Part shown: positions 1-61,674 of the stretch, one piece after another
Layout: each line of letters begins with the position of its first letter
Numbering within the stretch: the first letter of the stretch is position 1
Source: Bizionia hallyeonensis
Lineage (GTDB): Bacteria; Bacteroidota; Bacteroidia; Flavobacteriales; Flavobacteriaceae
Assembly: GCF_042657385.1 (NCBI RefSeq)
Contig: NZ_JBHSLA010000001.1
Location: 376,746-440,745, forward strand
Length of the DNA: 64,000 bases
Reading direction: 5' to 3'
Notes under the pieces: generated by a model
Seen by the model: only the letters and a program-made list of their open reading frames with translations
Databases searched by the model: none
Told to the model about the DNA's origin: nothing
Position numbers and translations under genes: made by a program

Positions 1-818
1 TAAATGGTATTGAAATTGTGCGTCAACTCATTGCAAAAGGCATCAATAAACCAAAATGTGGAACAATTATTTGCATACCTATTATTAATATTTTTGGGTT
101 TATAAATTTAAGTCGAGAGTTTCCTGATGGTCGCGATTTAAATCGGGTTTTTCCTGGTTTAAAAAACGGATCTTTAGCTAGTCGGGTTGCTTATAAACTA
201 GTAAATGAAGTGCTTAATCAAGCCGATTATGTCCTTGATTTTCATACGGGAGGCGCTGGTCGTTTTAATGCACCGCAAGTACGTATTGCTAAAAACAGCA
301 ACAGATTAGACGCTTTAGCTAAAACCTTTGGAGCACCCTTTGTTTTGTATTCTAAAAACTTAAAAAAATCATTTAGAGAAACGGCTTATAAAGCTGGAAT
401 TGCTACCTTATTATTTGAAGGTGGAAAATCACATCACATAGATGTAAATATTACTAATACAGGCGTAAATGGTGCCAAACGGGTTTTACATAGTTTGGGC
501 ATGCTGGGTTCTAAATTTAAAGTAACCGAACCCAAACAAAAACCTGTGTTTATTATGGCTAGTAAATGGCAACGCGCCAATTATTCCGGGATGTTTAAAG
601 CTTCGGTTGCTACGGGGACCAAAGTAAAAAAAGATGATATACTTGGAAATATTACCGATCCTTACGGCAAGTTTAATCATTTTGTACGTGCTAATAGTTC
701 GGGATATATAATTAATGTGAACGAATCGCCATTGGTTTATCAAGGTGATGCCTTATTTCATATTACAGCTCGTTTAAAGCAGCATCATGTTAAACAGGTT
801 GAAAATGACGAAGTCTGA
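1..818 (+). CDS. succinylglutamate desuccinylase/aspartoacylase (AstE/AspA) family protein, 5'-partial. The frame is open to the window edge and the GTG at 18 is probably internal.
   Basis: Motifs DFHTGGAGRFNAPQVRIAK and REFPDGRDLNRVFPG are typical of the AstE/AspA zinc hydrolase family. The reading frame continues upstream to nt 3. Confidence 0.6.
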   Translation, partial: NGIEIVRQLIAKGINKPKCGTIICIPIINIFGFINLSREFPDGRDLNRVFPGLKNGSLASRVAYKLVNEVLNQADYVLDFHTGGAGRFNAPQVRIAKNSNRLDALAKTFGAPFVLYSKNLKKSFRETAYKAGIATLLFEGGKSHHIDVNITNTGVNGAKRVLHSLGMLGSKFKVTEPKQKPVFIMASKWQRANYSGMFKASVATGTKVKKDDILGNITDPYGKFNHFVRANSSGYIINVNESPLVYQGDALFHITARLKQHHVKQVENDEV

Positions 819-1368
819 ATTACGAAAAATCTACAAACAAAAGCGGCAAGCACTTTCATTAGAAACGATTGACGATTTAAGCCTTCAAATTGCAAACAAT
901 CTTTTAGAAATGCCAATTTGGGAGCGTTTATACTACCATATATTTCTGTCTATTACCGAACAAAAAGAAATTAACACGGATTATATTATAAGTATTCTTT
1001 CGGGAAAAGATAAACATACAATCATTTCAAAAAGTGATTTTCAAACCACTGAATTATCGCATTATTTATTGACCGATGCTACAATTATTAAAAAAAACGC
1101 CTATAACATTCCAGAACCTGTTAATGGAATTCCGATAGCTTCCCATGTTATAGATGTCGTGTTTATTCCGTTATTAGCATTTGATAAACAAGGCCATCGT
1201 GTAGGTTACGGAAAAGGTTTTTATGATGGTTTTCTGAAAGATTGCAAACCCGAAACGATTAAAATAGGGCTTTCTTTTTTTGAAGCCGAAAACCAGATTG
1301 AAGGCATTTTTGAAAACGATGTGCCACTGGATTTTTGTGTCACACCAACTAAAACCTATCAGTTTTAG
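787..1368 (+). CDS. 5-formyltetrahydrofolate cyclo-ligase (MTHFS)
   Basis: 193 aa with the C-terminal GYGKGFYDGFL signature (GYGxGxYD) of 5-FTHF cyclo-ligases. The true start may be the internal Met at about 805. Confidence 0.8.
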   Translation: MLNRLKMTKSELRKIYKQKRQALSLETIDDLSLQIANNLLEMPIWERLYYHIFLSITEQKEINTDYIISILSGKDKHTIISKSDFQTTELSHYLLTDATIIKKNAYNIPEPVNGIPIASHVIDVVFIPLLAFDKQGHRVGYGKGFYDGFLKDCKPETIKIGLSFFEAENQIEGIFENDVPLDFCVTPTKTYQF

Positions 1369-1370
1369 CC

Positions 1371-2186
1371 TTATAACCGTTTATATTCTGTTTTTTCTGT
1401 TAGAAATTGAATAGGTTGATTATCACTAATCTTGAATTTAGTTTCCAGTGTTTTTCTGCCTTTTAAGGTTTGAATAAATACAACAAAATGTAAATGGGGT
1501 CCTGTAGACCAACCTACATTTCCACTTTCAGCAATAAACTGATTTTTTTCAACAACATCACCTTTCTTAACTTTAGCGCCCTTCTGTTTTATATGTGTAT
1601 ATTCAGCAAAAGTACCATCGTCATGGTAAATAATAACTTTGTTATTAAACTCCTTGCAGTCTTGGGTTGTACAATTTTTACTAAATTTATCTACAACCTC
1701 AACAACCAAACCACCACGCGCCGCAAGAATTGGAGTGCCAATTGGCATGGAAAAGTCTAAAGCATTCTCATTAGCATGAGATGATTTACCATTATATCCT
1801 TGAGAAAGCATGTAAGCTTCACCTCTATTGAAGGGCAAAACATATGGATACTCTTTTTCATAATCCTTTAAATAATGATCACCATAATTATAGGTGGTAC
1901 TTCCACTAACACCATATTTTCCTTTTTTAATTTGTGTTAAGGTTGTTAGCTTAATGTTTTTTGTATTTGCAGGTAGCAGGAATATTTTATCATTCCCTTC
2001 GGAAGATTTTAAATTTTTTAATTTAAAACTAACTTGAATTGAGACGGGAATGGGTTCATTATTATCAACATAAAATTCATACCCGTTTTCTATATTTTCA
2101 TAACGGGATGCCACATCTAACTGTGCAAATAAGCCTGCTGGAATAAGACACGTCCAGATGAAGTAACTAACTTTTAATAAATTCAT
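1371..2186 (-). CDS. M23 family (LytM-type) metallopeptidase, secreted
   Basis: N-terminal signal peptide. HxxxD-like region NENALDFSMPIGTPILAARGG and the terminal GPHLHFVVF (HxH) motif are characteristic of peptidase M23. Confidence 0.8.
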   Translation of the reverse strand: MNLLKVSYFIWTCLIPAGLFAQLDVASRYENIENGYEFYVDNNEPIPVSIQVSFKLKNLKSSEGNDKIFLLPANTKNIKLTTLTQIKKGKYGVSGSTTYNYGDHYLKDYEKEYPYVLPFNRGEAYMLSQGYNGKSSHANENALDFSMPIGTPILAARGGLVVEVVDKFSKNCTTQDCKEFNNKVIIYHDDGTFAEYTHIKQKGAKVKKGDVVEKNQFIAESGNVGWSTGPHLHFVVFIQTLKGRKTLETKFKISDNQPIQFLTEKTEYKRL

Positions 2187-2235
2187 GTTTTAAGTTTTTA
2201 AATAGATTTTTTTTTACAGTATCGAATAAACACAA

Positions 2236-2853
2236 TTAAGCAAACGCGCGTTTATTAAACACAATTAGCAACCCAAAACCTGTACTAATTGCCATATCAG
2301 CTACATTGAAAACGGGTTCAAAGAATGTGAAATATTCACCACCATAAAAAGGTAACCAATCTGGCAAATAGCCTTTCCATAAAGGAAAATACAACATGTC
2401 TACTACTTTACCATGCAAAAGGCTATCATAGCCACCAGAGGCAGGCATAAAGCTGGCTACTTGGCCATAACTATCATCAAATATTACTCCGTAAAATACG
2501 GAATCGATTATATTACCCATGGCACCAGCAAAAATAAGTGCCACTGCCCAAATTAGTATTTGTGACTGCTGCTTTTTTGTTGCATCATACAACCAGTAGC
2601 CAATTCCAAAAATAGCGACTATCCGGAATAACGTTAAAGAAATTTTTGCTGTTCTGTCTGAAATAAAACTGACAAAATCACTAATCTTGGTTCCCCAAGC
2701 CATACCATCATTTTCAATGAAATAGATTTTAAACCAGCTAAAAACAGTAATATCTTCACCTAAAACAAAATGGGTTTTGATATATATTTTACTCACTTGA
2801 TCTATGAGTAATATGAGAATAATAAAAAGAATGGATTTTTTTAAAGACATCAT
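2236..2853 (-). CDS. lspA: lipoprotein signal peptidase II
   Basis: 205 aa, four TM segments, and the conserved FNVADMAISTG (FNxAD) motif of signal peptidase II. The conserved position next to ileS supports the call. Confidence 0.85.
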   Translation of the reverse strand: MMSLKKSILFIILILLIDQVSKIYIKTHFVLGEDITVFSWFKIYFIENDGMAWGTKISDFVSFISDRTAKISLTLFRIVAIFGIGYWLYDATKKQQSQILIWAVALIFAGAMGNIIDSVFYGVIFDDSYGQVASFMPASGGYDSLLHGKVVDMLYFPLWKGYLPDWLPFYGGEYFTFFEPVFNVADMAISTGFGLLIVFNKRAFA

Positions 2854-2905
2854 GTTTTCTAGTTCTGAAAAACTAATTTGAAATTGAAGGACAAAAATAG
2901 CACTA

Positions 2906-3529
2906 TTATTGGGTTTTTGTTACGCTAATATTTCCGTTTATGGTATGTAATGATATTTGATTTGGTCCTAAAGGTATTTTATCTTGCTTAATACTGCCTT
3001 TCTTCGTGTTTAAATCTAAAAGTCCTGAATAGGTTTCCACTTCTATATTGCCATGTAAGGTATCCACTTGCAAATTACCCACATATTTATGGGCTAAAAA
3101 ATGACCATTTAATAATTCAGACGTTAGAAATTTAAAATTCCCATTAGCAAAAACCGAAGCAATATCACTAGTAATAATGACGGTTAGATTTTCAGGGATT
3201 TCCAATGTTAGCTCAATAGATATTTTTTTATGAGCCGCCAGTTTATCATCAGGCTTTACAAATAAGGGTTGGTACGCACTTCCAATAAAAAGGGTTTGAT
3301 TTTCTTGTCGCGTTTGTAATACAATTTGTTCATTATTTTCCCCTTCAACCTGTAAACCCATTGAAATAACTTGCACTGGTTTTGCAGATATTTTTATTTT
3401 AAACATGGTATTACCTGCAATATCAATGGTTGAAATTTTAGAGGCGTCGACAATCCGTTGCATTCCTTTTTGACCAAAGACGGGCGCAGAAAGCAAAATT
3501 AAAAGGAGGAATGTGGATAGAATTTTCAT
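2906..3529 (-). CDS. secreted hypothetical protein with repeated beta-strand motifs, possibly a DUF4097-like putative adhesin
   Basis: Signal peptide MKILSTFLLLILLSAPVFGQ. Repeated G-N-I-x-V / GNISV-like strands. No catalytic motif recognised. Confidence 0.4.
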   Translation of the reverse strand: MKILSTFLLLILLSAPVFGQKGMQRIVDASKISTIDIAGNTMFKIKISAKPVQVISMGLQVEGENNEQIVLQTRQENQTLFIGSAYQPLFVKPDDKLAAHKKISIELTLEIPENLTVIITSDIASVFANGNFKFLTSELLNGHFLAHKYVGNLQVDTLHGNIEVETYSGLLDLNTKKGSIKQDKIPLGPNQISLHTINGNISVTKTQ

Positions 3530-3588
3530 AAAACTAAAAACGCTCCAATAGACATTGAAGCGTTTATTTATGTTTAAACACGTAAATT

Positions 3589-3972
3589 TTATTGTTGCAT
3601 ATTTTTTGCTTCAATACTTAAGGTAGCATGAGGCACCAATTTTAAACGCTCTTTGGCAATTAATTTATTGGTTACACGACACACACCATAGGTTTTATTC
3701 TCAATACGAATTAAAGCATTTTTTAAATCGCGAATAAACTTTTCCTGACGAATAGCTAATTGTGCATTCGCTTCCTTGCTCATGGTTTCACTACCTTCTT
3801 CAAACGCTTTAAATGTTGGCGATGTATCATCGGTTCCATTATTTAAATCGTTCATGTAAGCACTTTTTATAAGCTCTAAATCATGTGTTGCTTTTTCTAT
3901 TTTCTCTTGAATAAGCATTTTGAATTCAGCTAAATCTTTATCTGAATATCTAACATTGATATCTTCTCCCAT
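3589..3972 (-). CDS. DksA/TraR family C4-type zinc finger-like transcription factor. Start reassigned to the internal Met, which removes a 47-nt overlap with ileS.
   Basis: Begins MGEDINVRYSDKDLAEFKMLIQEK and contains a coiled-coil. The TraR/DksA C-terminus is ...YGVCRVTNKLIAKERLKLVPHATL. The ileS-dksA-lspA neighbourhood is conserved. Confidence 0.65.
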   Translation of the reverse strand: MGEDINVRYSDKDLAEFKMLIQEKIEKATHDLELIKSAYMNDLNNGTDDTSPTFKAFEEGSETMSKEANAQLAIRQEKFIRDLKNALIRIENKTYGVCRVTNKLIAKERLKLVPHATLSIEAKNMQQ

Positions 3973-3976
3973 ATTC

Positions 3977-6900
3977 TTAATGTTTATTAATGGACAATCT
4001 GGTTGTAATTGCATCAAACGCAATTTCTATACCATCTTCAATTTTATCTTTTAATTCTAATGTTTCGGTTAAGGTTTCTGCTTTAATATACGCTAAATTT
4101 TCAGAAACTGCCTCTAAAATTTCATCATGCTTTTGAATAGAAACACTAATTCTATCCGTTACTTCAAAACCTGAATCTTTTCGTAAATTTTGAATGCGGT
4201 TAACTAGCTCACGAGCTATACCTTCATAACGTAATTCTTCAGAAATTGTTACATCTAAAGCAACTGTTAAGGTACCTTCATTTGCTACTAACCAACCTTC
4301 AATATCTTGAGAGGTAATTTCCACATCTGCGCGTTCTAAAGTAATGATTTTTCCGTTAATTTCAACATCAATCTCACCCTTTTGCTCAATTATTTTAATA
4401 TGATTTGCATCAAACTGCTGTATGCTTTTCGCTATCAACTTCATGTCTTTACCAAAACGAGGCCCTAATGTTTTGAAGTTTGGTTTGATTTGCTTCACCA
4501 AAATTTCAGATGCATCTTCTAAAATTTCAATTTCCTTAATGTTAACCTCATGTTTGATAAGATTTGCAACCGCTAGAATTTCTTCCTTTTGTTGTTCATT
4601 ATCCACTGGGATAATGATTTTCTGCAAAGGTTGACGCACTTTAATCTTCTCTTTGGCACGCAAGGACAACACTAAAGATGAAATGGTTTGAGCAGCCTCC
4701 ATTTTTCGCTCTAAAGATTTATCAACGAAACGTTCATTAAACTTTGGAAAGTTGGATAAATGCACACTTTCAAAGGTCTCTTTATTGGTAACTGCATTTA
4801 AATCCATATACAACCTATCCATAAAAAATGGCGCAATTGGAGCTCCCAGTTTAGCAATAGTTACCATACAGGTATAAAGTGTTTGATAAGCCGATATTTT
4901 ATCCGTTTGGTAGTCGCCTTTCCAGAAACGTCTTCTACTTAAACGCACATACCAGTTACTCACATAATCTTGCGTGAAATCGGAAATGGCACGAGCCGCT
5001 CTTGTTGGCTCATATTCTGCGTAAAATGCATCTACTTTTTGAATAAGTGTATGTAATTCCGAAAGGATCCATCGGTCTAATTCTGGACGTTCTTCTAATG
5101 GAATTTCCGCTTCTTCGTAAGTGAATTTATCTAAATTAGTATATAAACTGAAAAACGAATAGGTATTGTAAAGTGTTCCGAAAAATTTACGTTTCACCTC
5201 TTCTATACCTTCTAAATCAAATTTTAAATTATCCCACGGATTGGCATTCGCAATCATATACCAACGTGTGGCATCTGCTCCGTAAGTAGATAAGGTTTCA
5301 AATGGATCTGCAGCATTACCCAAACGTTTGGACATTTTCTGACCATTTTTATCTAAAACGAGTCCGTTAGAAACGACATTTTTATAAGCAACCGAATCGA
5401 ACACCATGGTGCCAATAGCATGAAGCGTATAAAACCAACCTCTTGTTTGATCCACACCTTCCGCAATAAAATCGGCTGGAAAAGATTCGTTGTTATCAAT
5501 TTTTTCTTTATTCTCAAATGGGTAATGCCATTGTGCATAAGGCATGGAGCCCGAATCGAACCAAACATCAATTAAATCTGACTCACGATTCATAGGTTTT
5601 CCTGAAGGTGAAACTAACACGATTTTATCAACAATGTTTTTATGTAAATCTATTTTCGCATAATTTTCATCCAAATTGTTTCCGACTTCAAAATCTTCAA
5701 AAATAGCTTTTGCAAGCACACCGGCATCAACAGCTTTTGCCATTTCAGCTTTTAATTCTTCCACCGAACCAATACAAATTTCTTCTTTTCCATCTTCTGT
5801 ACGCCAGATTGGTAATGGAATTCCCCAATACCGGGAACGGGATAAATTCCAATCGTTTGCATTTGCTAACCAATTTCCAAAACGACCTGTTCCAGTAGAT
5901 TTTGGTTTCCAATTAATGGTTTCGTTCAATTCAAACATTCTGTCCTTAACATCGGTAACTTTTATAAACCAAGAATCTAATGGATAGTATAGAATTGGTT
6001 TATCTGTTCGCCAGCAATTTGGATAACTGTGTTTATATTTTTCCACCTTAAAGGCTTTATTTTCTTCTTTTAATTTAATGGCTAGTTCCACATCTATAGA
6101 ACGTTCTGGTGCTTCACCATCAGCATAGTATTCGTTTTTTACATATTTACCAGCATATTCGCCCATTTCTGGACGGAATTTACCTTGCAAATTAACCAAT
6201 GGCACTAAATTTCCATTTTCATCTTTTACTAACAATGGTGGAATTTCTGGTGTGGCTTGTTTAGCTACCAAGGCATCATCTGCTCCAAAGGTTGGTGCAG
6301 TGTGTACAATTCCGGTTCCATCTTCTGTAGTTACAAAATCGCCAGAGATAATACGGAATGCGTTTTCAGGATTATCATTTGGTAAGGCATACGGCAATAA
6401 TTGCTCATAGGTAATACCTACTAAATCGGTTCCTTTAAATTCTTTAACTACAAAATATGGAATCTTTTTATCGCCAGATTTATAATCTAATAATTCCGGT
6501 TTTGTTTCAACACGTTTAAATTTCCCATCAAATTGATTGTTAACTAGAGGTTTTGCCAATACCACATTTATAGGCTCAAACGTATATTGGTTATAAGTTT
6601 CAACTAAAACATAATCAATTTTTGGTCCAACCGTTAAGGCCGTGTTACTTGGCAATGTCCAAGGTGTCGTTGTCCAAGCTAGAAAGTAAATATCACCTTC
6701 ATCCTTTAAGAAATCTGGTAATGAGTTTTCATTTGCTTTAAACTGTGCTACAACTGTTGTATCTGTAACATCTTGATACGTTCCTGGTTGGTTTAACTCA
6801 TGCGAGCTCAAGCCTGTTCCTGCTTTAGGCGAATAGGGCTGAATGGTATACCCTTTATAAATTAAGTTTTTATTATAAATTTCCTTTAATAACCACCAAA

Positions 6901-7393
6901 CGGATTCCATATATTTTGGGTCGTAAGTTACATACGGATTGTCCATATCCACCCAGTAGCCCATTTTTTCAGTCAGATCGTTCCAAACGTCTGTATACCG
7001 CATAACCGCTTTACGGCAGGCTGCATTGTAATCTTCCACTGAAATAGTTTTACCAATATCTTCTTTGGTAATACCTAATTCCTTTTCAACACCCAACTCA
7101 ATAGGCAAACCATGTGTATCCCATCCAGCTTTACGTTTAACTTGATAGCCTTTCATGGTTTTATAACGTGGAAAAATATCTTTAATAGCACGCGCTAAAA
7201 CGTGATGTACACCTGGTAACCCGTTTGCTGAAGGTGGCCCTTCAAAAAACACAAATGGTTCCGCTCCTTCACGTGTGGTAACACTTTTTTCAAATACGTT
7301 ATGTTGCTTCCAATAATCAAGAATATTACTTGCTACTTGTGGCAAGTCAAGTCCTTTGTATTCAGGGAATTTATTACTCATAATTTCATTCAT
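3977..7393 (-). CDS. ileS: isoleucine--tRNA ligase (type 2, about 1138 aa)
   Basis: HIGH-region PPSANGLPGVHHVL, KMSKS motif KMSKRLGN and the CP1 editing-domain architecture. The length matches Bacteroidota IleS. Confidence 0.97.
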   Translation of the reverse strand: MNEIMSNKFPEYKGLDLPQVASNILDYWKQHNVFEKSVTTREGAEPFVFFEGPPSANGLPGVHHVLARAIKDIFPRYKTMKGYQVKRKAGWDTHGLPIELGVEKELGITKEDIGKTISVEDYNAACRKAVMRYTDVWNDLTEKMGYWVDMDNPYVTYDPKYMESVWWLLKEIYNKNLIYKGYTIQPYSPKAGTGLSSHELNQPGTYQDVTDTTVVAQFKANENSLPDFLKDEGDIYFLAWTTTPWTLPSNTALTVGPKIDYVLVETYNQYTFEPINVVLAKPLVNNQFDGKFKRVETKPELLDYKSGDKKIPYFVVKEFKGTDLVGITYEQLLPYALPNDNPENAFRIISGDFVTTEDGTGIVHTAPTFGADDALVAKQATPEIPPLLVKDENGNLVPLVNLQGKFRPEMGEYAGKYVKNEYYADGEAPERSIDVELAIKLKEENKAFKVEKYKHSYPNCWRTDKPILYYPLDSWFIKVTDVKDRMFELNETINWKPKSTGTGRFGNWLANANDWNLSRSRYWGIPLPIWRTEDGKEEICIGSVEELKAEMAKAVDAGVLAKAIFEDFEVGNNLDENYAKIDLHKNIVDKIVLVSPSGKPMNRESDLIDVWFDSGSMPYAQWHYPFENKEKIDNNESFPADFIAEGVDQTRGWFYTLHAIGTMVFDSVAYKNVVSNGLVLDKNGQKMSKRLGNAADPFETLSTYGADATRWYMIANANPWDNLKFDLEGIEEVKRKFFGTLYNTYSFFSLYTNLDKFTYEEAEIPLEERPELDRWILSELHTLIQKVDAFYAEYEPTRAARAISDFTQDYVSNWYVRLSRRRFWKGDYQTDKISAYQTLYTCMVTIAKLGAPIAPFFMDRLYMDLNAVTNKETFESVHLSNFPKFNERFVDKSLERKMEAAQTISSLVLSLRAKEKIKVRQPLQKIIIPVDNEQQKEEILAVANLIKHEVNIKEIEILEDASEILVKQIKPNFKTLGPRFGKDMKLIAKSIQQFDANHIKIIEQKGEIDVEINGKIITLERADVEITSQDIEGWLVANEGTLTVALDVTISEELRYEGIARELVNRIQNLRKDSGFEVTDRISVSIQKHDEILEAVSENLAYIKAETLTETLELKDKIEDGIEIAFDAITTRLSINKH

Positions 7394-34994: not shown

Positions 34995-37900
34995 ATGAAA
35001 CATAAATACGCCCTCATATTTATTACTTTTTTGTGTGCTGTTTTGTCTGGGTTTGGGCAAGTGACTTTACATTCGGAAACATTTGAAGGGCTAATTAATG
35101 TTGGTTATTCATCCACTGGTGTATTTTCTGATGGATCAAAAGACTATTTCACTTTAATAGACAATGGATCTGACCCTTCAGGATTACCATCTTACACAAA
35201 TTTTGGAGGGGTCAAATTTTGGGCTGGTGAAGACACACAAGATGCCGGTAATCCAAATACGTCAGGGATATCGAATGTCAGTATTTCTTCAATTAATATT
35301 TCAGGTTATTCATCAATAAATATTTTAGGTTTATTTGGAGCTGGAAGTTCTTCCGCATTTGATAATGAAGATTATATCAGAATATATGCTCAAGTTGATG
35401 GCAGTGGTTACACATTGATTGGAGCTTTTGAAGGAACTGGCGGATTTAACACATCGTTAAATCAAGACACTAACCTTGATGGTACAGGTAATGGCACAGC
35501 TTTAACAACTGCATTTCAACAATTCTTATTTCCAATAGGCTCTACGGGTAGTAATTTAGATTTAAGAATCGATATTTTTATGACTTCTGGAGATGAAGCA
35601 GTTGCCTTTGATAACATTGAGGTTGAAGGTATTCTTTCCTGCACACCACCTGTAGATCCAAATGGAACAATTACAGGAACAACACCTGCTTGTACCAATA
35701 CAATATTAACCTATTCTGGAACAACAATACTAGGTACAATTGATTATTGGCAAACTACGGCCACGGGAACCTCAACGGCTAACAATGCCACAGGAACTTT
35801 TAATGCAACCGCCACTGGAACATATTATGTAAGAAGATTTTTAACAGCAACTTCTTGTTGGTCTGCAGGAACTGCAAGTTATGCTGTTGTAATAAATTCT
35901 GCACCAAGTATATCAACACAACCAGCTAATGCTACAAGAGTCATTCCTAACAACGCCACGTTTTCTGTAGCGGCAACAGGAACGCCTGCACCAACTTACC
36001 AATGGCAAGTCTCAACAAATGGCGGCACCACATGGACTAACGTAACAGGAGGCTCCGGCGCAACTACAAATACGTATACAACGGGAGCAACTTCGGCGCC
36101 AATGAATGGTAATCAATACCGATGTGTTGTTACTAATAGTTGTGGCGCTGTAACATCTGCTGCTAGAACTTTAACTCTTAGCAATAACTCTCCGACTAAT
36201 GCGCAAAATTTAACCGGTTGTTTTGAAGACACATCGGCTACTTTAACATGGAATAACCCTTCAACACCGCCAACTGGAGGATATATCATTTTTGCTTTAG
36301 AAGGAACTGTACAACCTTCAGCACCATCAAATAACGCAAATACATATACAGCTAATCCTAATTATAATGCTGCACCATTTGAAACACCACCTAGTTTAGG
36401 AAAAGTAATATATAAAGGAAATGGAACAACGGCAGCTTTAACAGGTTTAACCGAAGGCACAACATATTCTTTTAGAATTTTTGCTTACAATGGTGAAACT
36501 CTAACAGGTTGGTCCAATGGTGCTTCTGGTGGGAGTAATTTGGAAGATATTGCTCAAGGCGATGTGCGTAATTTAGTGGCTACACCTTTAACAAATCAAG
36601 TTAATTTGAGTTGGAATAACCCATTACCAACATCTTGTTTTGATCAATTAATCATTGTAGCAAATGCAGGTGCGGTTACATTTACACCTACTGGGACTTA
36701 TCCTAATATAGATGTAAATTATACAACACCAAGTACCATTTTATATTCAACCACAGCACCGGTGAGTTCAAAAGCAATGAATGGTTTAACCAATGGTACC
36801 AATTATTGTTTTAAAATATTTATTCGACGAGGTGCAACTTGGTCAGAAGGTGTTGAAGTTTGTGCGGTACCATCATTGACATATTGTAGTGCTAGTGGTA
36901 ATACATCCTACGATACAGGAATAACTGGTGTTACTTTCAATACTATTAATAATATAGGAACCTCTGCAAATAATGCTTACACCAACTACACAATGCAGTC
37001 TACGATTGTTACATTGGGTAACAATTACAATCTAGGTGTTGTTATAAATATTGATGGTGCAGTTGACGTTTACACGCGAGCATGGATTGATTGGAATCAA
37101 AATGGAAGCTTCAATGATTCGGGCGAACAATATGAATTGGGCATGGATACCAATACAAGCTCATCAATAGATTTAAATACGGCAACCGCTAATTCCCCAA
37201 TTAATATTGAAGTCCCAACCGACGCTGTTTTAGGAGCTACCAGAATGCGTGTGTTTACACAATATAATAATTTACCAACATCTTGCGCAACAGGCAATAG
37301 TGGCGAAGTAGAAGATTATACGATTAATGTGGTGCAACCTGTGAACGCAGAAATCAATATTAAAGGAAATAACATTTCTATTGCCAACGGATTTAATGCA
37401 CCTTATGGATTAAACAATACGTTGTTTGCTAGCACACCTTTAAACACAGATTCTGTTGAAAAAGAATTTACCATAGAAAATATTGGTTTAGCAAATTTAC
37501 TATTAACAGGTTCGCCTATTATTCAATTAGAAGGTACAAACCCAACAGACTTTATTGTAACGCAGCATGCAACATCACCAGTTGTGAATGGCACAAACAC
37601 AACTTTTAGAATTAAATTTCACCCAACCGTTGCCGGTACGAGAACAGCAAAAGTGAGAATTGAAAATAATGATTCTGATGAAAATCCTTATCTTTTCACC
37701 ATAGAAGGTGAAGGTAATTGTACAACTGCTCCAACTGTTGCTACTTTTCCAACATCTGGTCCAGCAAATACATTGGTGACTTTTACTTCAGCAACAAGCA
37801 ATCTTATAGGAGCCACAATTACATATAATAATATAGCAGTTCCTACTGTTTCTAATACATCAGACACTATAGAAGTATTGATTCCTTCAGATGCTAATGA

Positions 37901-58827: not shown

Positions 58828-59320
58828 ATGACTACCTTCCCTGTTTCTGCCTCAACTCTCTCTGAAACCGCTTTAGGCAACTTCATAAAAGACACGTATC
58901 AACTAGCGGCAAATTTTAGCTGTAAGTTATACCGAACAGGTTTAAACCATACCTACTTTATTACAGATGGGCAAACCACTTATGTTATTCGGGTTTACTG
59001 CTATAACTGGCGAACAAAAACGGAAATTCAGGAAGAATTACGTTTATTAAACCAACTTAAAAACAACAACCTTTCGGTTTCATTTCCTATTGCTGACAAA
59101 AATGGGATCGTAATTCAAGACATTCAAGCACCAGAAGGACTGCGCCATGTGGTACTTTTTTCCTTTGCTAAAGGGGTGACAAAATTCGCGTTATGAAACC
59201 AGACACCTGTTTTGCTATTGGCGAAATTATGGCCAAAATTCATAATGAAACCGAAGGACAGAATTATGAACTGTACAGCCCAAACTTTGATTTTAAAAAT
59301 AGTGGGTAAGATTTTCGTTC
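58828..59320 (+). pseudogene. disrupted phosphotransferase-family (APH / homoserine-kinase type II-like) gene, with a -1 frameshift near 59172-59196 and a 3' truncation
   Basis: Frame 1 encodes an APH-like N-lobe (GLNHTYFITDGQTTYVIRVY...EIQEELRLLNQL...RHVVLFSFAKG) and stops at 59196. Frame 0 continues MKPDTCFAIGEIMAKIHNETEGQNYELYSPNFDF (APH brace region lG..lA.lH) and stops at 59320. The catalytic HGD/N and DxD regions are absent. Confidence 0.6.
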
Positions 59321-59403
59321 CGAAAATCCGCTAACAAAAACCCGCACTTTTCATTCACAAAACCGTTGGATTAAATTTAACAGTATCATTAAAAAGTAAA
59401 CCT

Positions 59404-59498
59404 AATTGTTTACTTTTTTTATTTATTGTAAACATATAAGATTACTTTTTTATATATTTGTAAATGCATATGTTTACAATTTTATTATTTTGTAAACT
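59404..59498. promoter_or_regulatory. nested inverted repeats (GTTTAC/GTAAAC half-sites) upstream of the HTH gene. Putative operator/promoter.
   Basis: aattGTTTAC (59404-13), ttgTAAACatat (59425-36), atatGTTTACaa (59468-79), ttGTAAACtt (59489-98). ATTGTAAACATAT and ATATGTTTACAAT form a 12-bp perfect inverted repeat. Confidence 0.35.
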
Positions 59499-59514
59499 TA
59501 AAGCTTTACAAAAA

Positions 59515-59976
59515 ATGAGAAATAAGCACAAACTTTTAATTGAGCAGTTAGACCAAAAGCTTCGTCCATTCGCTGAAACCCGAAAGATCATGGTTCCACA
59601 ACGCGGATGGATAAATACAATTAGAACATCTCTCAATATGACAATGGCACAACTTGGCGCCAAATTAAATATAACACGACAAGGTGTAAAAAGAATTGAA
59701 GAAAGTGAGGCTAATGGTTCCATAACGCTCAAATCTTTAAAAGATGTAGCCCATGCACTGGATTTAAAATTAATATATGCACTAGTGCCAATAAATGGGA
59801 CCATCAACGATTTAGTTGAAATAAAAGCAGAAAATCTGGCCAGAAAGATTGTATTAAGAACCAATCAAAATATGAAATTAGAAGACCAAGGAATTGGCGA
59901 TGAAAAACTAGCTAAAACAATAGAGGAACTGGCTAGTGAAATAAAACGCGAGATGAAAAAATCATTATGGGATTAG
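59515..59976 (+). CDS. XRE-family HTH protein of the 'mobile mystery protein A' type, partner of the downstream Fic protein. Start moved to MRNKHKL.
   Basis: HTH MTMAQLGAKLNITRQGVKRIE. About 153 aa. Overlaps the downstream Fic gene by 10 nt. The pairing with a short Fic protein is the A/B family signature. Confidence 0.65.
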   Translation: MRNKHKLLIEQLDQKLRPFAETRKIMVPQRGWINTIRTSLNMTMAQLGAKLNITRQGVKRIEESEANGSITLKSLKDVAHALDLKLIYALVPINGTINDLVEIKAENLARKIVLRTNQNMKLEDQGIGDEKLAKTIEELASEIKREMKKSLWD

Positions 59977-60563
59977 AATTTGATTATAAAGTAGGACAAA
60001 CACCTTTAGACGAAGTTGAAAAGGAGGGTCTTAAAATGAAGTCAATTACTACGCAAGGGGAACTGGATGAATTTGAGCAATTGAATATTGAAAAAGCTGT
60101 CGAATGGACCATTCATACAAAATTGAAACCTGAAAAAATTTTAACGGAAAAATTTGTAAAAGACTTACATAAAAAAATGTATGGCGATGTATGGAAATGG
60201 GCAGGTGAATTCAGAATGACTGAAAAAAACATTGGAATCCCTTGGACACAAATTGGAATTGAATTAAAAAATTTACTGGACGACACGAAATACTGGATAG
60301 AACACAAAACTTTTCCGCCTGAAGAAATAGCTATAAGATTTAAACATCGCATAGTATCCATTCATTGCTTTCCAAATGGAAATGGAAGGCACTCCCGAAT
60401 GATGGCTGACATTATTATGGAATCCATATTCGGGAATGACATATTTACTTGGCATCAATCAAATACGGTAAAAGCTAGCGAAACACGAAATAAGTATATA
60501 AAATCCTTGAGAGAAGCTGATAATGGTAATTTTACATCGTTAATTGAATTTGCAAAAAACTAA
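59967..60563 (+). CDS. Fic/Doc-family protein of the 'mobile mystery protein B' type (putative AMPylating toxin)
   Basis: Fic active-site motif HCFPNGNGRHSR (HxFx[D/E/N]GNGRxxR). 198 aa. Confidence 0.75.
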   Translation: MGLEFDYKVGQTPLDEVEKEGLKMKSITTQGELDEFEQLNIEKAVEWTIHTKLKPEKILTEKFVKDLHKKMYGDVWKWAGEFRMTEKNIGIPWTQIGIELKNLLDDTKYWIEHKTFPPEEIAIRFKHRIVSIHCFPNGNGRHSRMMADIIMESIFGNDIFTWHQSNTVKASETRNKYIKSLREADNGNFTSLIEFAKN

Positions 60564-60584
60564 AATTAGCTTAAACTGAAAAAG

Positions 60585-61244
60585 ATGCTGAACTACAACA
60601 AAATATTTCTGATTAGAGAATCTTATTCTAATCGTCCATTTAGAGGTGTTATTGAAAATTTTGATTTGGCCGAACCTAAAATTTCAAGAGGAGAAAAACA
60701 CATAACAGAAACGGTTACGGTAAAACATATAATGGGTGGACAAACCCTTTATGATATAATTTGGACAACCAATGCTTTTCCGCTAATAGTTAGCGAAAGA
60801 GTAATTAGGTTATTTAAATCAAATGGAATTACAGGTTGGAAAACATACAATGTTGAAATTCGCTCAAAAAAGAATGAATTGATTGACCAAAATTTTTTCG
60901 GACTTATTATAACTGGTCGCTGTGGCCATCGAGATTATTCTAAAAGCTCAATAGTATTAAGCAAAATTGGAGTGTACACCAAACCTCACATTAAAGGTTT
61001 TTATTTTAACGATGATTCTTGTGACGATTCTGATTTATTTATGAGTAACCCAGATGACGAAGGACATTCAACTATGCATCGTTTTTGCTCACAAAATGTT
61101 GTAAACCTATTTCAAAAAGAAAAAATAAAGAATATTAATTTTGAAAACCTAAATGAGTCAACATTGGCAATTGAATTACACCAAATACCCCTGACTGACA
61201 AACAAAAATCTGAAATGGAAAAATTAAAAACCAACGGTAAGTAA
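60585..61244 (+). CDS. hypothetical 219-aa protein, possibly an immunity-protein-like (DUF1629/Imm-type) fold
   Basis: 21 nt downstream of and co-oriented with the Fic gene. PLIVSERVIRLFKSNGITGWKTYNVEI and SDLFMSNPDDEGHSTMHRFCSQNVVNLFQKEKIKNINFENL resemble the v-S-E-x-l...G...f blocks of some polymorphic-toxin immunity families. This is from memory, not verified. Confidence 0.35.
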   Translation: MLNYNKIFLIRESYSNRPFRGVIENFDLAEPKISRGEKHITETVTVKHIMGGQTLYDIIWTTNAFPLIVSERVIRLFKSNGITGWKTYNVEIRSKKNELIDQNFFGLIITGRCGHRDYSKSSIVLSKIGVYTKPHIKGFYFNDDSCDDSDLFMSNPDDEGHSTMHRFCSQNVVNLFQKEKIKNINFENLNESTLAIELHQIPLTDKQKSEMEKLKTNGK

Positions 61245-61275
61245 TGAACAACTCCTATTTAAATCAAGTAAACGT

Positions 61276-61674
61276 TTATTCCAAAGAATATTCTGCAACC
61301 AATTTCACAAAATCCAAAGAACTAATCATGCCTACTATATTTCCTTCGTCCATTACAACCATGTGGTGTACGTCGTGCCTCAGCATCATTTTAGCGGCCG
61401 CATTAGCGCTTGAATTCATATGGACTACATGAACTCTAGATGATGTCATGACATCTTCCACAGTCGTGCTTTCTTGAACATCTTTATTCATATCCGTCGT
61501 GGTGACAATACCGCGTATAATCATCTCCGTATCTAATATGTCTTTGGAATAGGATATAATGGGAATAGCATTAATTCCTTTATCCTTCATTCGCGCTCTT
61601 ACCTCAATAACACTGTTTTCTCCTTTAGCTGTAATAACTGGTGCTGACATAAAATCTTTTACTTGTATTTTCAT
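61276..61674 (-). CDS. CBS-pair domain protein
   Basis: 132 aa with two CBS repeats (VKDFMSAPVITA... and VEDVMTSSRVHVVH...). Confidence 0.8.
   Translation of the reverse strand: MKIQVKDFMSAPVITAKGENSVIEVRARMKDKGINAIPIISYSKDILDTEMIIRGIVTTTDMNKDVQESTTVEDVMTSSRVHVVHMNSSANAAAKMMLRHDVHHMVVMDEGNIVGMISSLDFVKLVAEYSLE

Follow-up and report, generated by a model that had tools for sequence, protein, structure and literature searches.

Orphan immunity genes are believed to influence which bacteria survive contact-dependent warfare, and unlinked toxin/immunity pairs are known to occur. The closest described protein to the one considered here is MXAN_0049, the prototype of Imm11 (PMC12077181), which was shown experimentally to be the immunity protein of the AHH nuclease MXAN_0050 (PMC12077131). 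Homologues in M. xanthus bind and neutralise their toxin, and M. xanthus Imm proteins are reported to be acidic (PMC12077131). The double_CXXCG family (PF09535/TIGR02264) is a Pfam clan-mate of Imm11 in clan CL0767 (PMC12077181). Orphan immunity genes carried on mobile arrays have a precedent in Bacteroidales (Ross et al., 10.1101/471110). There, an rAID-1 locus is recognised by at least 2 co-oriented genes of low GC behind a XerD-like recombinase, which lies 5′ of them in the same direction and is >44% identical to BF9343_RS08045 (10.1101/471110). In gut Bacteroidales, orphan immunity genes accumulate in such "integron-like" rAID clusters, whose mechanics are unclear. Integrons themselves are almost absent from Bacteroidetes in IntegronFinder surveys made with standard tools.

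The stretch analysed here, termed the window, is 64,000 nt (64 kb) of Bizionia hallyeonensis DNA. Its features around a 219-aa ORF, termed the Imm gene, are as follows.

59327..59373, + strand: possible attC-like relic, internally deleted, at the 5′ boundary of the HTH-Fic cassette (from the covariance model and position)
59425..59480, + strand: promoter/operator of the HTH-Fic cassette (-7 box and 13-bp inverted repeat)
59464..59976, + strand: HTH_3 gene, "mobile mystery protein A" (TIGR02612 2e-43, residues 22-170)
59967..60563, + strand: Fic-domain gene, "mobile mystery protein B" (Pfam Fic 2e-10, TIGR02613 6e-75; Fic motif HCFPNGNGRHSR)
60564..60584, + strand: inter-cassette junction, 21 nt (from the similarity limits of both modules and a junction line-up)
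60585..61244, + strand: 219-aa ORF with an ATG start; probable Imm11-clan (MXAN_0049-like) immunity protein, without a signal peptide
61230..61244, + strand: degenerate 3′ box of the Imm cassette (from the 3′-end alignment, the motif table and a covariance model search of the window)
61276..61674, - strand: CBS-domain gene, convergent, the housekeeping flank to the right of the cassette relic (Pfam CBS 9e-19; syntenic in locus L001)

The Fic stop codon TAA (60561-60563) is followed by 21 nt and then by the start of the 219-aa ORF, and no terminator-like site was found between the two genes. Coordinates and terminator search agree in this with an earlier note made from the sequence alone, which described the ORF as co-oriented with the Fic gene, 21 nt past its stop and with no terminator in between. 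The same note allowed for a random ORF. However the protein has 42 homologous protein clusters, with identities of 37-100%, its N-terminus and length are kept among homologues, and a profile search with the family gives 1560 representatives at E<=1e-3. Thus the ORF does not represent a chance reading frame.

The earlier note also saw in two blocks of the protein a resemblance to DUF1629/Imm-type immunity proteins, and this is borne out. Pfam PF07791 (Imm11) matches residues 67-188 of the protein (positions 71-191 of the 194 in the profile) with E=1.7e-4 and 21.5 bits, a borderline result for this protein itself as it lies 0.6 bits under the gathering cutoff of 22.1. In the wider family, 37 of 112 members match Imm11 at E<=1e-3, with a best value of 9.4e-12. 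The broader family profile, A2, reaches the sequence of the MXAN_0049 structure (PDB 6a4c) with E 4.9e-7; the narrow profile, A1, has no match among PDB sequences, 6a4c included. At the level of fold, the unique match of the 219-aa protein is also MXAN_0049. The invariant or near-invariant family columns G84, W85, D150, F152 and M153 fall in both of the blocks that had been pointed out. The borderline Pfam match, the unique fold match and the profile-to-sequence match support an assignment of the protein as Imm11/DUF1629-like. PADLOC and NCBIfam scans of the ORF gave no matches, thus the protein is not a known defence-system component.

There are differences from the prototype. The 219-aa family has an invariant G-R-C-G motif that is absent in MXAN_0049, and the pI of the protein is 8.6, mildly basic, whereas the M. 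xanthus proteins are acidic. Unlike the MXAN_0049-0050 pair, which belongs to a T6SS AHH nuclease system, the gene has no linked toxin, PAAR or T6SS gene, and the toxins linked to its relatives score nearer to DUF2380 than to Pfam AHH. DUF2380 is of interest with respect to double_CXXCG, which is the partner of SitA6/DUF2380 lipoprotein toxins, as it is the best match of the toxin domains linked to relatives of the 219-aa gene. The T-G-R-C-G of the protein also resembles one CXXCG. However the protein displays this single Cys-containing motif, with the first Cys changed to Thr, where double_CXXCG proteins require two CXXCG motifs. The double_CXXCG model has no Pfam or NCBIfam match to the protein at E<=1 and none among the 112 family members at E<=1e-3, and the protein is not assigned to that family.

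Taken as a whole, the 219-aa gene is probably an orphan Imm11-clan immunity gene directed against nuclease toxins, which stands in a fossil cassette pair beside the Fic gene. The toxins are seen in relatives from other phyla, which sit directly downstream of polymorphic toxins with an AHH motif. An HMM of the toxin C-terminal domain matches the ORF immediately upstream of the Imm homologue in 13 loci, all of them loci of distant homologues, and where a toxin is present in relatives it is always in this position. The N-terminal parts of the 13 toxins are unrelated delivery parts (subtilase plus fn3, RHS or myxobacterial). Their common end is a domain of ~100 aa in which "AHH" is invariant and a His follows downstream. 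The domain has a weak relationship to two Pfam families, DUF2380 and AHH, both predicted to be nucleases of the HNH/EndoVII type. In one locus (L030) the toxin is followed by three tandem Imm paralogues.

The Flavobacteriaceae copies show none of this linkage. The toxin-domain HMM has no matches in the Flavobacteriaceae loci or in the window, and no toxin remnant was detected 5′ of the 219-aa ORF or elsewhere in the window (best window E 1.1). A toxin-domain profile search for a Bacteroidota partner returned short, mostly unnamed metagenome proteins and no named match from Bacteroidota. Neighbours of the Flavobacteriaceae copies are variable and include the immunity families SUKH-1, Imm33-like, SUFU, Imm30 and WapI. 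No recurrent upstream partner gene was found among them; neighbour clustering gave only locus-pair synteny. The earlier note had offered, as a second reading, an orphan immunity gene retained after loss of its toxin. The orphan state is supported, given that relatives follow toxins and that no toxin domain was found next to the Flavobacteriaceae copies or in the window. The loss is not quite right, as the Flavobacteriaceae gene moves by itself, in a cassette of one gene, and thus a local loss of toxin need not be assumed.

By extension from its relatives, the Bizionia protein would bind a predicted nuclease domain of the AHH type 1:1 in the cytoplasm and block it. Since no cognate toxin is linked to the Bizionia gene, its role would be that of an orphan immunity protein that counters toxins delivered into the cell by competing bacteria. 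It could be argued that B. hallyeonensis has a matching AHH/DUF2380-type toxin elsewhere, and that the gene guards against the cell's own toxin or that of sibling cells. Unlinked pairs do exist and the toxin search covered 64 kb of the genome. However such a pairing is unlikely in view of the best E of 1.1 in the window, the lack of a linked toxin in all Flavobacteriaceae copies, the movement of the gene as a single-gene cassette, and the immediately upstream position of the toxin in relatives.

The two genes that precede the Imm gene form an independent HTH-Fic cassette, of which Fic is the second gene. They overlap by 10 nt, and both are full-length members of the "Mobile mystery protein A/B" families (TIGR02612/TIGR02613), with scores above the curated cutoffs. 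The ATG at 59515, at residue 18 of the ORF, is likely the true start of the HTH gene. Before this gene, at 59453-59460, lies a -7 box of the Bacteroidetes type, TATATTTG, and the two arms of a perfect 13-bp inverted repeat with half-sites TGTAAAC/GTTTACA stand on either side of the box (59425-59437 and 59468-59480). It should be noted that the -7 motif occurs over the whole window at chance frequency (101 vs 108 expected) and is meaningful by position only; 64 of 70 Fic loci have it, at 23-56 nt 5′ of the HTH start. A sigma-70 promoter scan was uninformative (20 sites vs 17 expected). No exact -7 box is present on the + strand from 59461 to 61135. Judging from these sequence features, transcription that reads through into the Imm ORF likely starts at the HTH-Fic promoter, and the Imm ORF, which appears to have no promoter of its own, would now be transcribed in this way.

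In marine Flavobacteriaceae, the Imm gene and the HTH-Fic pair are found as separate integron-type cassettes in co-oriented arrays. Each cassette has a 3′ box that overlaps the stop codon, followed by an attC-like hairpin of ~135 nt. The spacer hairpin of one multi-cassette array, L004, folds with a z of -7.3, and every cassette of this array is bounded by complementary ends of its own. The attC-like structure comprises 19 pairs, of which 15 are compensatory, and covariation among 22 sites is 0.56, vs 0.15 in shuffled sequences (0/500). The covariance model recovers 129 sites (45 + 84), every one of them on the + (sense) strand; 286 kb of control sequence from other phyla yielded none. An attC-like site begins at the Fic stop codon in 28 of 72 Fic loci.

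The ends of the cassettes are also informative. The 5′ and 3′ boxes of the Imm cassette, GTTA[N]CTGC and GCAG[N]TAAC, are complementary in 11/11 scored loci and covary, with C:G, G:C and T:A variants. They are complementary in loci L125-L127 as well, where the 5′ box is further upstream. For the HTH-Fic cassette, 16/64 loci have end boxes with an exact 7/7 complementarity, against 2/64 in the null. Direct repeats near the modules were short and at chance level, and no target-site duplications beyond these were found. Complementarity of the 5′ end to the cassette's own 3′ box is a property of the homologous loci; the two Imm boxes of the window are degenerate. Likewise, co-oriented structured sites with R and L stems are present at the family level and not in the window.

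At the Bizionia junction, the Fic stop is followed by "A", then by what is left, in degenerate form, of the Imm cassette 5′ box (ATTAGCTT, 60565-60572), and then by AAACTGAAAAAG, the conserved leader. An attC-like site of ~135 nt usually follows the Fic stop and is missing here. Thus the 21-nt gap between Fic and Imm represents the deletion of the attC-like site between two cassettes. At the other end, the Bizionia 3′ box reads ACCAACGGTAAGTAA in place of the consensus GCCAGCAGGTAAC, and a 1-nt deletion in this box has changed the C-terminus from ..KASR* to ..KTNGK*. From the Imm stop to the stop of the convergent CBS gene there are 31 nt, without an attC-like site.

The covariance model search found no intact or significant attC-like site in the window, and none is present in L001; the cassette origin of the Bizionia genes is thus drawn from homologous loci. 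A possible relic lies at 59327..59373, with an R″-like CGCTAAC ... CAAAACC and an R′-like GTTGGATTA (59365-59373). Its covariance model score of 9.9 bits (E 3.1) is not significant alone, and the region 59296-59392 folds no better than shuffled sequences. The relic ends 142 nt before the HTH start, and elsewhere attC-like sites or complementary boxes end with a mode at ~140-148 nt upstream of HTH.

The decay of the boundaries bears on whether the gene still matters to the cell. A stranded cassette that has lost its recombination sites could be in slow decay, its protein unimportant, and both degenerate boxes, the rewritten C-terminus and the lack of any remaining attC-like site would fit such a state. 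Compared with the sister species B. algoritergicola, the ORF has 11 non-synonymous and 8 synonymous codon differences, with a rough dN/dS of ~0.4, thus the constraint on the protein may be relaxed. However this value is below 1, both Bizionia species keep an intact ORF, with an amino-acid identity of 96%, all invariant family residues are present in the Bizionia protein, and the position of the ORF makes read-through from an active-looking promoter likely. A functionless gene is therefore improbable.

More doubtful still is that the Imm11-like fold serves a non-immunity role in Flavobacteriaceae. The subfamily keeps 60-84% identity across genera with no toxin partner in any Flavobacteriaceae locus, and the conserved TGRCG motif and basic pI are unlike those of MXAN_0049. 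However the same TGRCG-bearing family (alignment A2) includes members located after toxins, some Flavobacteriaceae copies lie among other immunity families, and Bacteroidales offer the precedent of orphan immunity genes on mobile arrays (10.1101/471110).

The position beside Fic had led the earlier note to propose the protein as a possible third component of the Fic/HTH system. Among the homologue loci of the Imm gene, Fic/HTH is nearby in only 1 of 42, and that locus is the syntenic one of B. algoritergicola. From the Fic side, 80 relatives were taken from metagenomes, with identities of 80-91%. HTH lies upstream of Fic in 76/76 loci and is an obligate partner, whereas tblastn and a profile HMM detected no Imm11-like gene downstream of these close relatives (0/64). 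Downstream of the Fic module, the flanking sequences sort into 39 clusters that are unrelated to one another, and the 219-aa gene is outside the module in every other locus examined. DNA similarity to the Fic module stops at 60560-60569 in 77 of 80 loci, and similarity to the Imm cassette begins at 60566-60594 in 14 loci. The adjacency to Fic is thus shown to be historical and not functional. That the protein works with HTH-Fic as an extra antitoxin, immunity or specificity factor is largely refuted by co-occurrence from both sides and very improbable, despite the co-orientation, the probable co-transcription over a 21-nt gap free of a terminator and the same arrangement in the sister species, as similarity to each module ends within a few nt of the junction and the usual inter-cassette site has simply been deleted in Bizionia.

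The probable orphan immunity gene and its neighbours are then best described by a short series of events. In the Bizionia lineage, an HTH-Fic cassette and an Imm cassette have come to be adjacent, the attC-like site between them has been deleted to leave 21 nt, and the site after the Imm gene has been lost too. For annotation, the consequence is that the gene should not be listed as a new part of a Fic system but as a probable orphan immunity gene from a known clan.

A wider proposal is put forward tentatively. Marine Flavobacteriaceae may possess a widespread, and maybe undescribed, integron-like capture system with its own class of ~135-nt attC sites (R boxes of the GTTACCT/GTTGGCT type), which would stockpile orphan immunity genes and self-promoted HTH-Fic modules. 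As read from the sequences, this could be a marine counterpart of rAID-1, and Bizionia a fossil in which two cassettes were welded into a new operon. The cargo of these arrays is similar to that of the gut clusters, and covarying end boxes and R/L stems allow the recombination sites of the arrays to be resolved at the level of single bases. If the proposal is true, the sites together with candidate tyrosine recombinases offer a testable model for the acquisition of defensive genes by Bacteroidota, and the covariance model can be used to find such arrays.

With respect to integrons (Cury 2016; Neron 2022, PMC9024848), the likeness is in the cassettes and in the sites. Cassettes are mostly promoterless single ORFs, the exception being the HTH-Fic cassette with its own promoter, and a GTT-initiated 5′ box is complementary to an ..AAC 3′ box over the stop codon. 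The sites are imperfect hairpins, built of R and L stems with variable loops and with spacers that stay unpaired; they all point the same way, and folding is better for the bottom strand. As in fused integron cassettes, site loss fuses neighbouring cassettes. However the boxes GTTACCT/GTTGGCT fit the canonical GTTRRRY poorly, the site length in Flavobacteriaceae is tightly ~135 nt, and no bona fide IntI, attI or Pc was identified in the Flavobacteriaceae arrays. Divergent tyrosine-recombinase fragments do adjoin the Imm cassette in L125/L126, with similar scores for the competing models, of 168 bits (XerA/integron integrase), ~160 (XerC/D) and 144.5 (TIGR02249); all are below cutoffs because the fragments are truncated.

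With respect to the AID/rAID-1 clusters, the hosts differ in order, being marine Flavobacteriales and not Bacteroidales, and the L125/L126 fragments are divergent and not co-directional 5′ genes. Genes unrelated to immunity are also part of the Flavobacteriaceae arrays (HTH-Fic, zeta toxin, GNAT and DUF genes), and the window holds a two-cassette fossil rather than an array. However both belong to the phylum Bacteroidota, both have a tyrosine recombinase next to arrays, in some of the Flavobacteriaceae cases (L125/L126), and in both, orphan immunity genes that lack toxins are gathered in mobile arrays whose intergenic sequences are repetitive and integron-like.

The ORF that follows the Fic gene in the window is a real gene. 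The genes concerned are as follows.

59464-59976, + strand, HTH_3 gene
59967-60563, + strand, Fic gene
60585-61244, + strand, immunity-like (Imm) gene of 219 codons with an ATG start
31 nt past the Imm stop, opposite strand and convergent, CBS-domain gene (Pfam)

The HTH and Fic genes, which overlap by 10 nt, encode full-length versions of 'mobile mystery protein A' (TIGR02612) and 'mobile mystery protein B' (TIGR02613), respectively. The Fic stop codon TAA at 60561-60563 leaves a spacer of 21 nt, and no terminator-like hairpin was found between the Fic and Imm genes; coordinates and hairpin scan thus agree with the co-oriented, closely spaced layout first described in the earlier note. The annotation of Bizionia hallyeonensis carries a protein identical to the Imm product. 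Homologues form 42 clusters with 37-100% identity, most of 218 aa and with a shared N-terminus, and a profile built from them finds 1560 representatives at E<=1e-3, showing a conserved and not a random ORF. The two sequence blocks that had been singled out hold the invariant family columns G84, W85, D150, F152 and M153. A 62-aa ORF at 61244-61432 (+) begins at the final base of the Imm stop and overlaps the conserved CBS gene in antisense; a Pfam search gave it no match, and it is probably spurious.

The sole Pfam match of the Imm protein is Imm11 (PF07791, formerly DUF1629), where its 21.5 bits fall short of the gathering score, 22.1, and place it just outside the family under the strict Pfam rule; NCBIfam and PADLOC scans gave no match. 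Further tests place it within the Imm11 clan, in keeping with the resemblance proposed earlier. A broad family profile of 112 sequences recovers the sequence of PDB entry 6a4c (MXAN_0049) at E 4.9e-7, and 37 of the 112 members match Pfam Imm11 individually (best 9.4e-12); a search with a narrower profile did not recover 6a4c. MXAN_0049 is the Imm11 prototype (PMC12077181) and an experimentally characterised immunity protein against the T6SS-delivered AHH nuclease MXAN_0050 (PMC12077131). The absence of a signal peptide, by inspection, suits a cytoplasmic nuclease inhibitor. However the protein has a pI of 8.6, whereas the M. xanthus immunity proteins are acidic (PMC12077131). The gene is a divergent member of an already known kind.

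Homologous loci, one genome per species, number 42, with 27 outside and 15 within the Flavobacteriaceae. In 13 of the 27 the ORF directly upstream carries a shared C-terminal domain of ~100 aa (HMM E 1e-50 to 7e-8), although three of these ORFs are truncated remnants. The remainder of the upstream protein varies: in Paenibacillus alvei it is a subtilase with fn3 repeats, in Acidobacteriota and Verrucomicrobiota it has RHS repeats, and Myxococcota show other architectures. A common C-terminal domain joined to a differing remainder, with the homologue directly after it, is what defines a polymorphic toxin and its immunity gene. In the P. alvei locus (L030, from a MAG; 1491-7388) a 1246-aa subtilase and fn3 protein with an AHH-motif toxin domain at its end is followed by three tandem 212-aa immunity paralogues, a homogeneous polyimmunity array. 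The shared domain has invariant H28/H29, an Ala before them ("AHH") and a conserved His downstream. Its Pfam matches are a weak one to DUF2380 and, once, AHH (E 0.0085); members of the wider family bear the annotation DUF2380, some of them together with a PT-TG pre-toxin domain. DUF2380 is the SitA6 toxin family, whose usual immunity partner is double_CXXCG, a Pfam clan-mate of Imm11 (PMC12077181). In this branch, then, the immunity protein is Imm11-like and its partner is an AHH toxin of DUF2380-like type.

Two observations are added here. Past the P. alvei immunity paralogues a 225-aa ORF repeats part of the middle region of the toxin. In the Imm family the motif TGRCG (residues 110-114, window 60912-60926), with G-R-C-G invariant and the preceding Thr nearly so, resembles half of the CXXCG motif of the double_CXXCG family, and the branch that bears it may be an evolutionary intermediate.

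The toxin-domain HMM found no match in the 15 Flavobacteriaceae loci or the 64-kb window (best window E 1.1), and no toxin was seen in five further Flavobacteriaceae contexts retrieved by protein identity. These results favour the orphan immunity gene that the earlier note had offered as its alternative. Neighbours are locus-specific (SecA, a type I R-M subunit, a zeta toxin, a DUF4145/HEPN protein), with no recurrent upstream partner found. The Aquimarina gene is flanked by SUKH-1 and Imm33-like genes, and SUFU, Imm30 and WapI-like immunity families are near others. Between the window and its sister species, Bizionia algoritergicola, the Imm ORF shows 8 synonymous and 11 non-synonymous codon differences. 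Rough dN/dS values are ~0.4 for Imm, ~0.3 for Fic and ~0.2 for CBS; the gene is under constraint, though perhaps a loose one.

The proposal that the Imm protein is a third component of the Fic system is refuted by co-occurrence: among the 42 loci, tblastn with the window Fic and HTH proteins matches only B. algoritergicola (L001), a locus that shares synteny and ~93-95% DNA identity with the window, and a metagenome scan for Fic proteins (80 loci, 80-91% identical) shows the HTH partner in 76/76 loci with upstream room but the Imm gene, by tblastn and the broad profile, in 0/64 with downstream room. The 61 usable downstream Fic flanks sort into 39 clusters that are unrelated to one another. 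In 77 of 80 loci DNA similarity to the Fic module ends at 60560-60569, and the Imm genes of 14 further Flavobacteriaceae resemble the window only from 60566-60594 to 61226-61251. Thus the two modules are independent and meet to within a few bases.

As for the Fic protein itself, the canonical AMPylating motif is HxFx[D/E]GNGRxxR, and the window motif, HCFPNGNGRHSR at 60357-60392, has Asn at the Asp/Glu position. No inhibitory motif [S/T]xxxE[G/N] was obvious by eye in the HTH partner.

Both modules occur as integron-type cassettes in other marine Flavobacteriaceae. Alignment of Imm gene ends across other Flavobacteriaceae shows a conserved box, GTTACCTGC, ~12 nt 5′ of the ATG, the reverse complement of which, GCAGGTAAC, overlaps the stop codon. 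The boxes covary, with the pairs GTTACCTGC/GCAGGTAAC, GTTAGCTGC/GCAGCTAAC and GTTATCTGC/GCAGATAAC all observed, and all 11 loci scored by script are complementary at the variable position. So are three others (L125-L127), whose 5′ box is found 45 nt before the start as called. A 3.7-kb Aequorivita scaffold (L004, 1-3714) is an array of at least four cassettes with five attC-like sites, the cassettes having their own complementary ends (GTTACCTGC..GCAGGTAAC twice, GTTCTATGC..GCATAGAAC and GTTACCCAA..TTGGGTAAC). Two of these cassettes are separated by a 136-nt spacer that forms a long, imperfect hairpin with its boxes paired (-32.0 kcal/mol; z -7.3 for the bottom and -4.4 for the top strand). 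Ochrovirga (L011) has eight sites in 7.3 kb (515-6449). The HTH-Fic pair is a cassette too: a model-significant site starts at the Fic stop codon in 28/72 loci (TAA[A/T]GCCAAC...) and one ends ~140 nt (mode) before the HTH start in 25/60. The reverse complement of each cassette's own 3′ box lies ~148 nt upstream of HTH with a 7/7 match in 16/64 loci, against 2/64 by chance, and these end boxes covary as well. In marine Flavobacteriaceae such arrays, in which ~135-nt attC-like hairpins of one orientation stand between single ORFs, were seen in L003, L008, L013 and L014 as well as in L004 and L011, with zeta toxin, DUF1643, GNAT, SUKH-1 and Imm33-like genes among the cargo.

A structural alignment of 22 non-redundant sites shows that all share one structure. 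Its R stem has 6 bp and its L stem 13 bp with interruptions, the unpaired spacers are unequal and the loop is variable; 15 of 19 pairs have compensatory changes. Paired cells amount to 90.9% against 68.3% in shuffles, but the percentage paired is inflated, as the sites had been chosen beforehand for being hairpins whose R boxes are complementary. Covariation scores 0.56, against 0.15 shuffled (reached in 0/500 shuffles), and slid registers give <=0.11. A covariance model (CM) built from the 22 sites is a fairer test. It finds 45 sites at E<=0.01 in 20 Flavobacteriaceae Imm loci and 84 in the 80 Fic loci, all 129 on the sense strand and the majority outside the training set; 286 kb of loci from other phyla gave no match at E<=1, and the 64-kb window nothing significant. 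A weak match (15.6 bits, E 0.18) at 37380-37432 (-) has good R boxes (AGCAAAC ... GTTGGCAAT) with only 19 nt between the arms, and may be an internally deleted site relic.

Past the Fic stop the window reads TAA-A-ATTAGCTT-AAACTGAAAAAG-ATG, whereas other Fic loci have TAAAGCCAAC followed by the ~135-nt site, and other Imm loci ...CC-GTTA[N]CTGC-AAGCTGAAAAAA-ATG. Thus the inter-cassette site has been deleted; what remains is the Imm leader, preceded by a degenerate 5′ box at 60565-60572. The window Imm 3′ box is also degenerate, a 1-nt deletion turning ..KASR* into ..KTNGK*, and the CM found no attC-like site after it. Upstream of HTH, CAAAACC-GTTGGATTA contains an R′-like box (59365-59373) that ends 142 nt before ATG 59515, the likely HTH start; 142 nt is the modal position of site ends there. 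The CM aligns 59327-59373 as an internally deleted site (E 3.1), which is suggestive, not proof, of a further relic. B. algoritergicola has this junction too, so the site loss predates the split of the two species. Taken together, these results make it quite likely that the Imm gene, of the Imm11 clan, is an orphan gene for immunity to AHH/DUF2380-type nuclease toxins, and that it is a relic single-gene cassette which came to be fused behind the HTH-Fic cassette when the recombination site between the two was lost.

Farther upstream, B. algoritergicola has an extra ~2.1 kb, which holds the rest of an APH-like (phosphotransferase) gene, an ORF of 314 aa that is aspartyl-protease-like (Asp_protease_2) and another ORF, of 180 aa. 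In the window this APH-like gene is cut to a 122-aa ORF (58828-59263 vs L001:2185-4756), and it seems split in B. algoritergicola also.

A Bacteroidetes-type -7 box, TATATTTG, at 59453-59460 has a perfect 13-bp inverted repeat on both sides, and such a box is present in 64/70 Fic loci; from these sequences the HTH-Fic cassette would bring its own promoter. No exact -7 box was found on the + strand between 59460 and the Imm start, and with no terminator in between the Imm ORF is probably transcribed by read-through from the HTH-Fic promoter. Co-transcription with Fic is thus a likely by-product of the lost site. Around this promoter (window 59403-59500; 80 Fic loci, L043-L122) the operator-like repeats belong either to a TGTAAAC/GTTTACA family, which is that of the window, or to a ATACATATAAGTAT/ATACTTATATGTAT family. 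Which family is present seems to follow the divergence of the HTH protein (~80-90% vs ~65% identity), with the Fic protein remaining at 80-91%, and this suggests that repressor/operator specificity switched within one cassette family.

No paper on such arrays in Flavobacteriaceae was found in the literature searched, which is not proof of novelty. Almost no integrons are reported in Bacteroidetes by IntegronFinder 2.0 (PMC9024848), and integron-like repeats were noted in the Bacteroidales rAID-1 orphan-immunity clusters by Ross et al. (10.1101/471110). No secure integron integrase was found in the loci examined. In two loci divergent, truncated tyrosine-recombinase genes lie ~160 nt upstream of the Imm cassette (L125:4557-4838 (-) and L126:19-570 (-)), a layout that recalls the intI, attI, first-cassette order of integrons; these fragments, of the Xer/integron-integrase superfamily, are indistinguishable from Xer recombinases. 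As in integron cassettes, the 5′ end of the elements described here derives from their own attC, their arrays are co-oriented and the bottom strand is favoured, but their boxes are a poor match to the canonical GTTRRRY. More interesting than the gene itself is a by-product of the analysis, the evidence that marine Flavobacteriaceae may have an integron-like cassette system with an attC class of its own.
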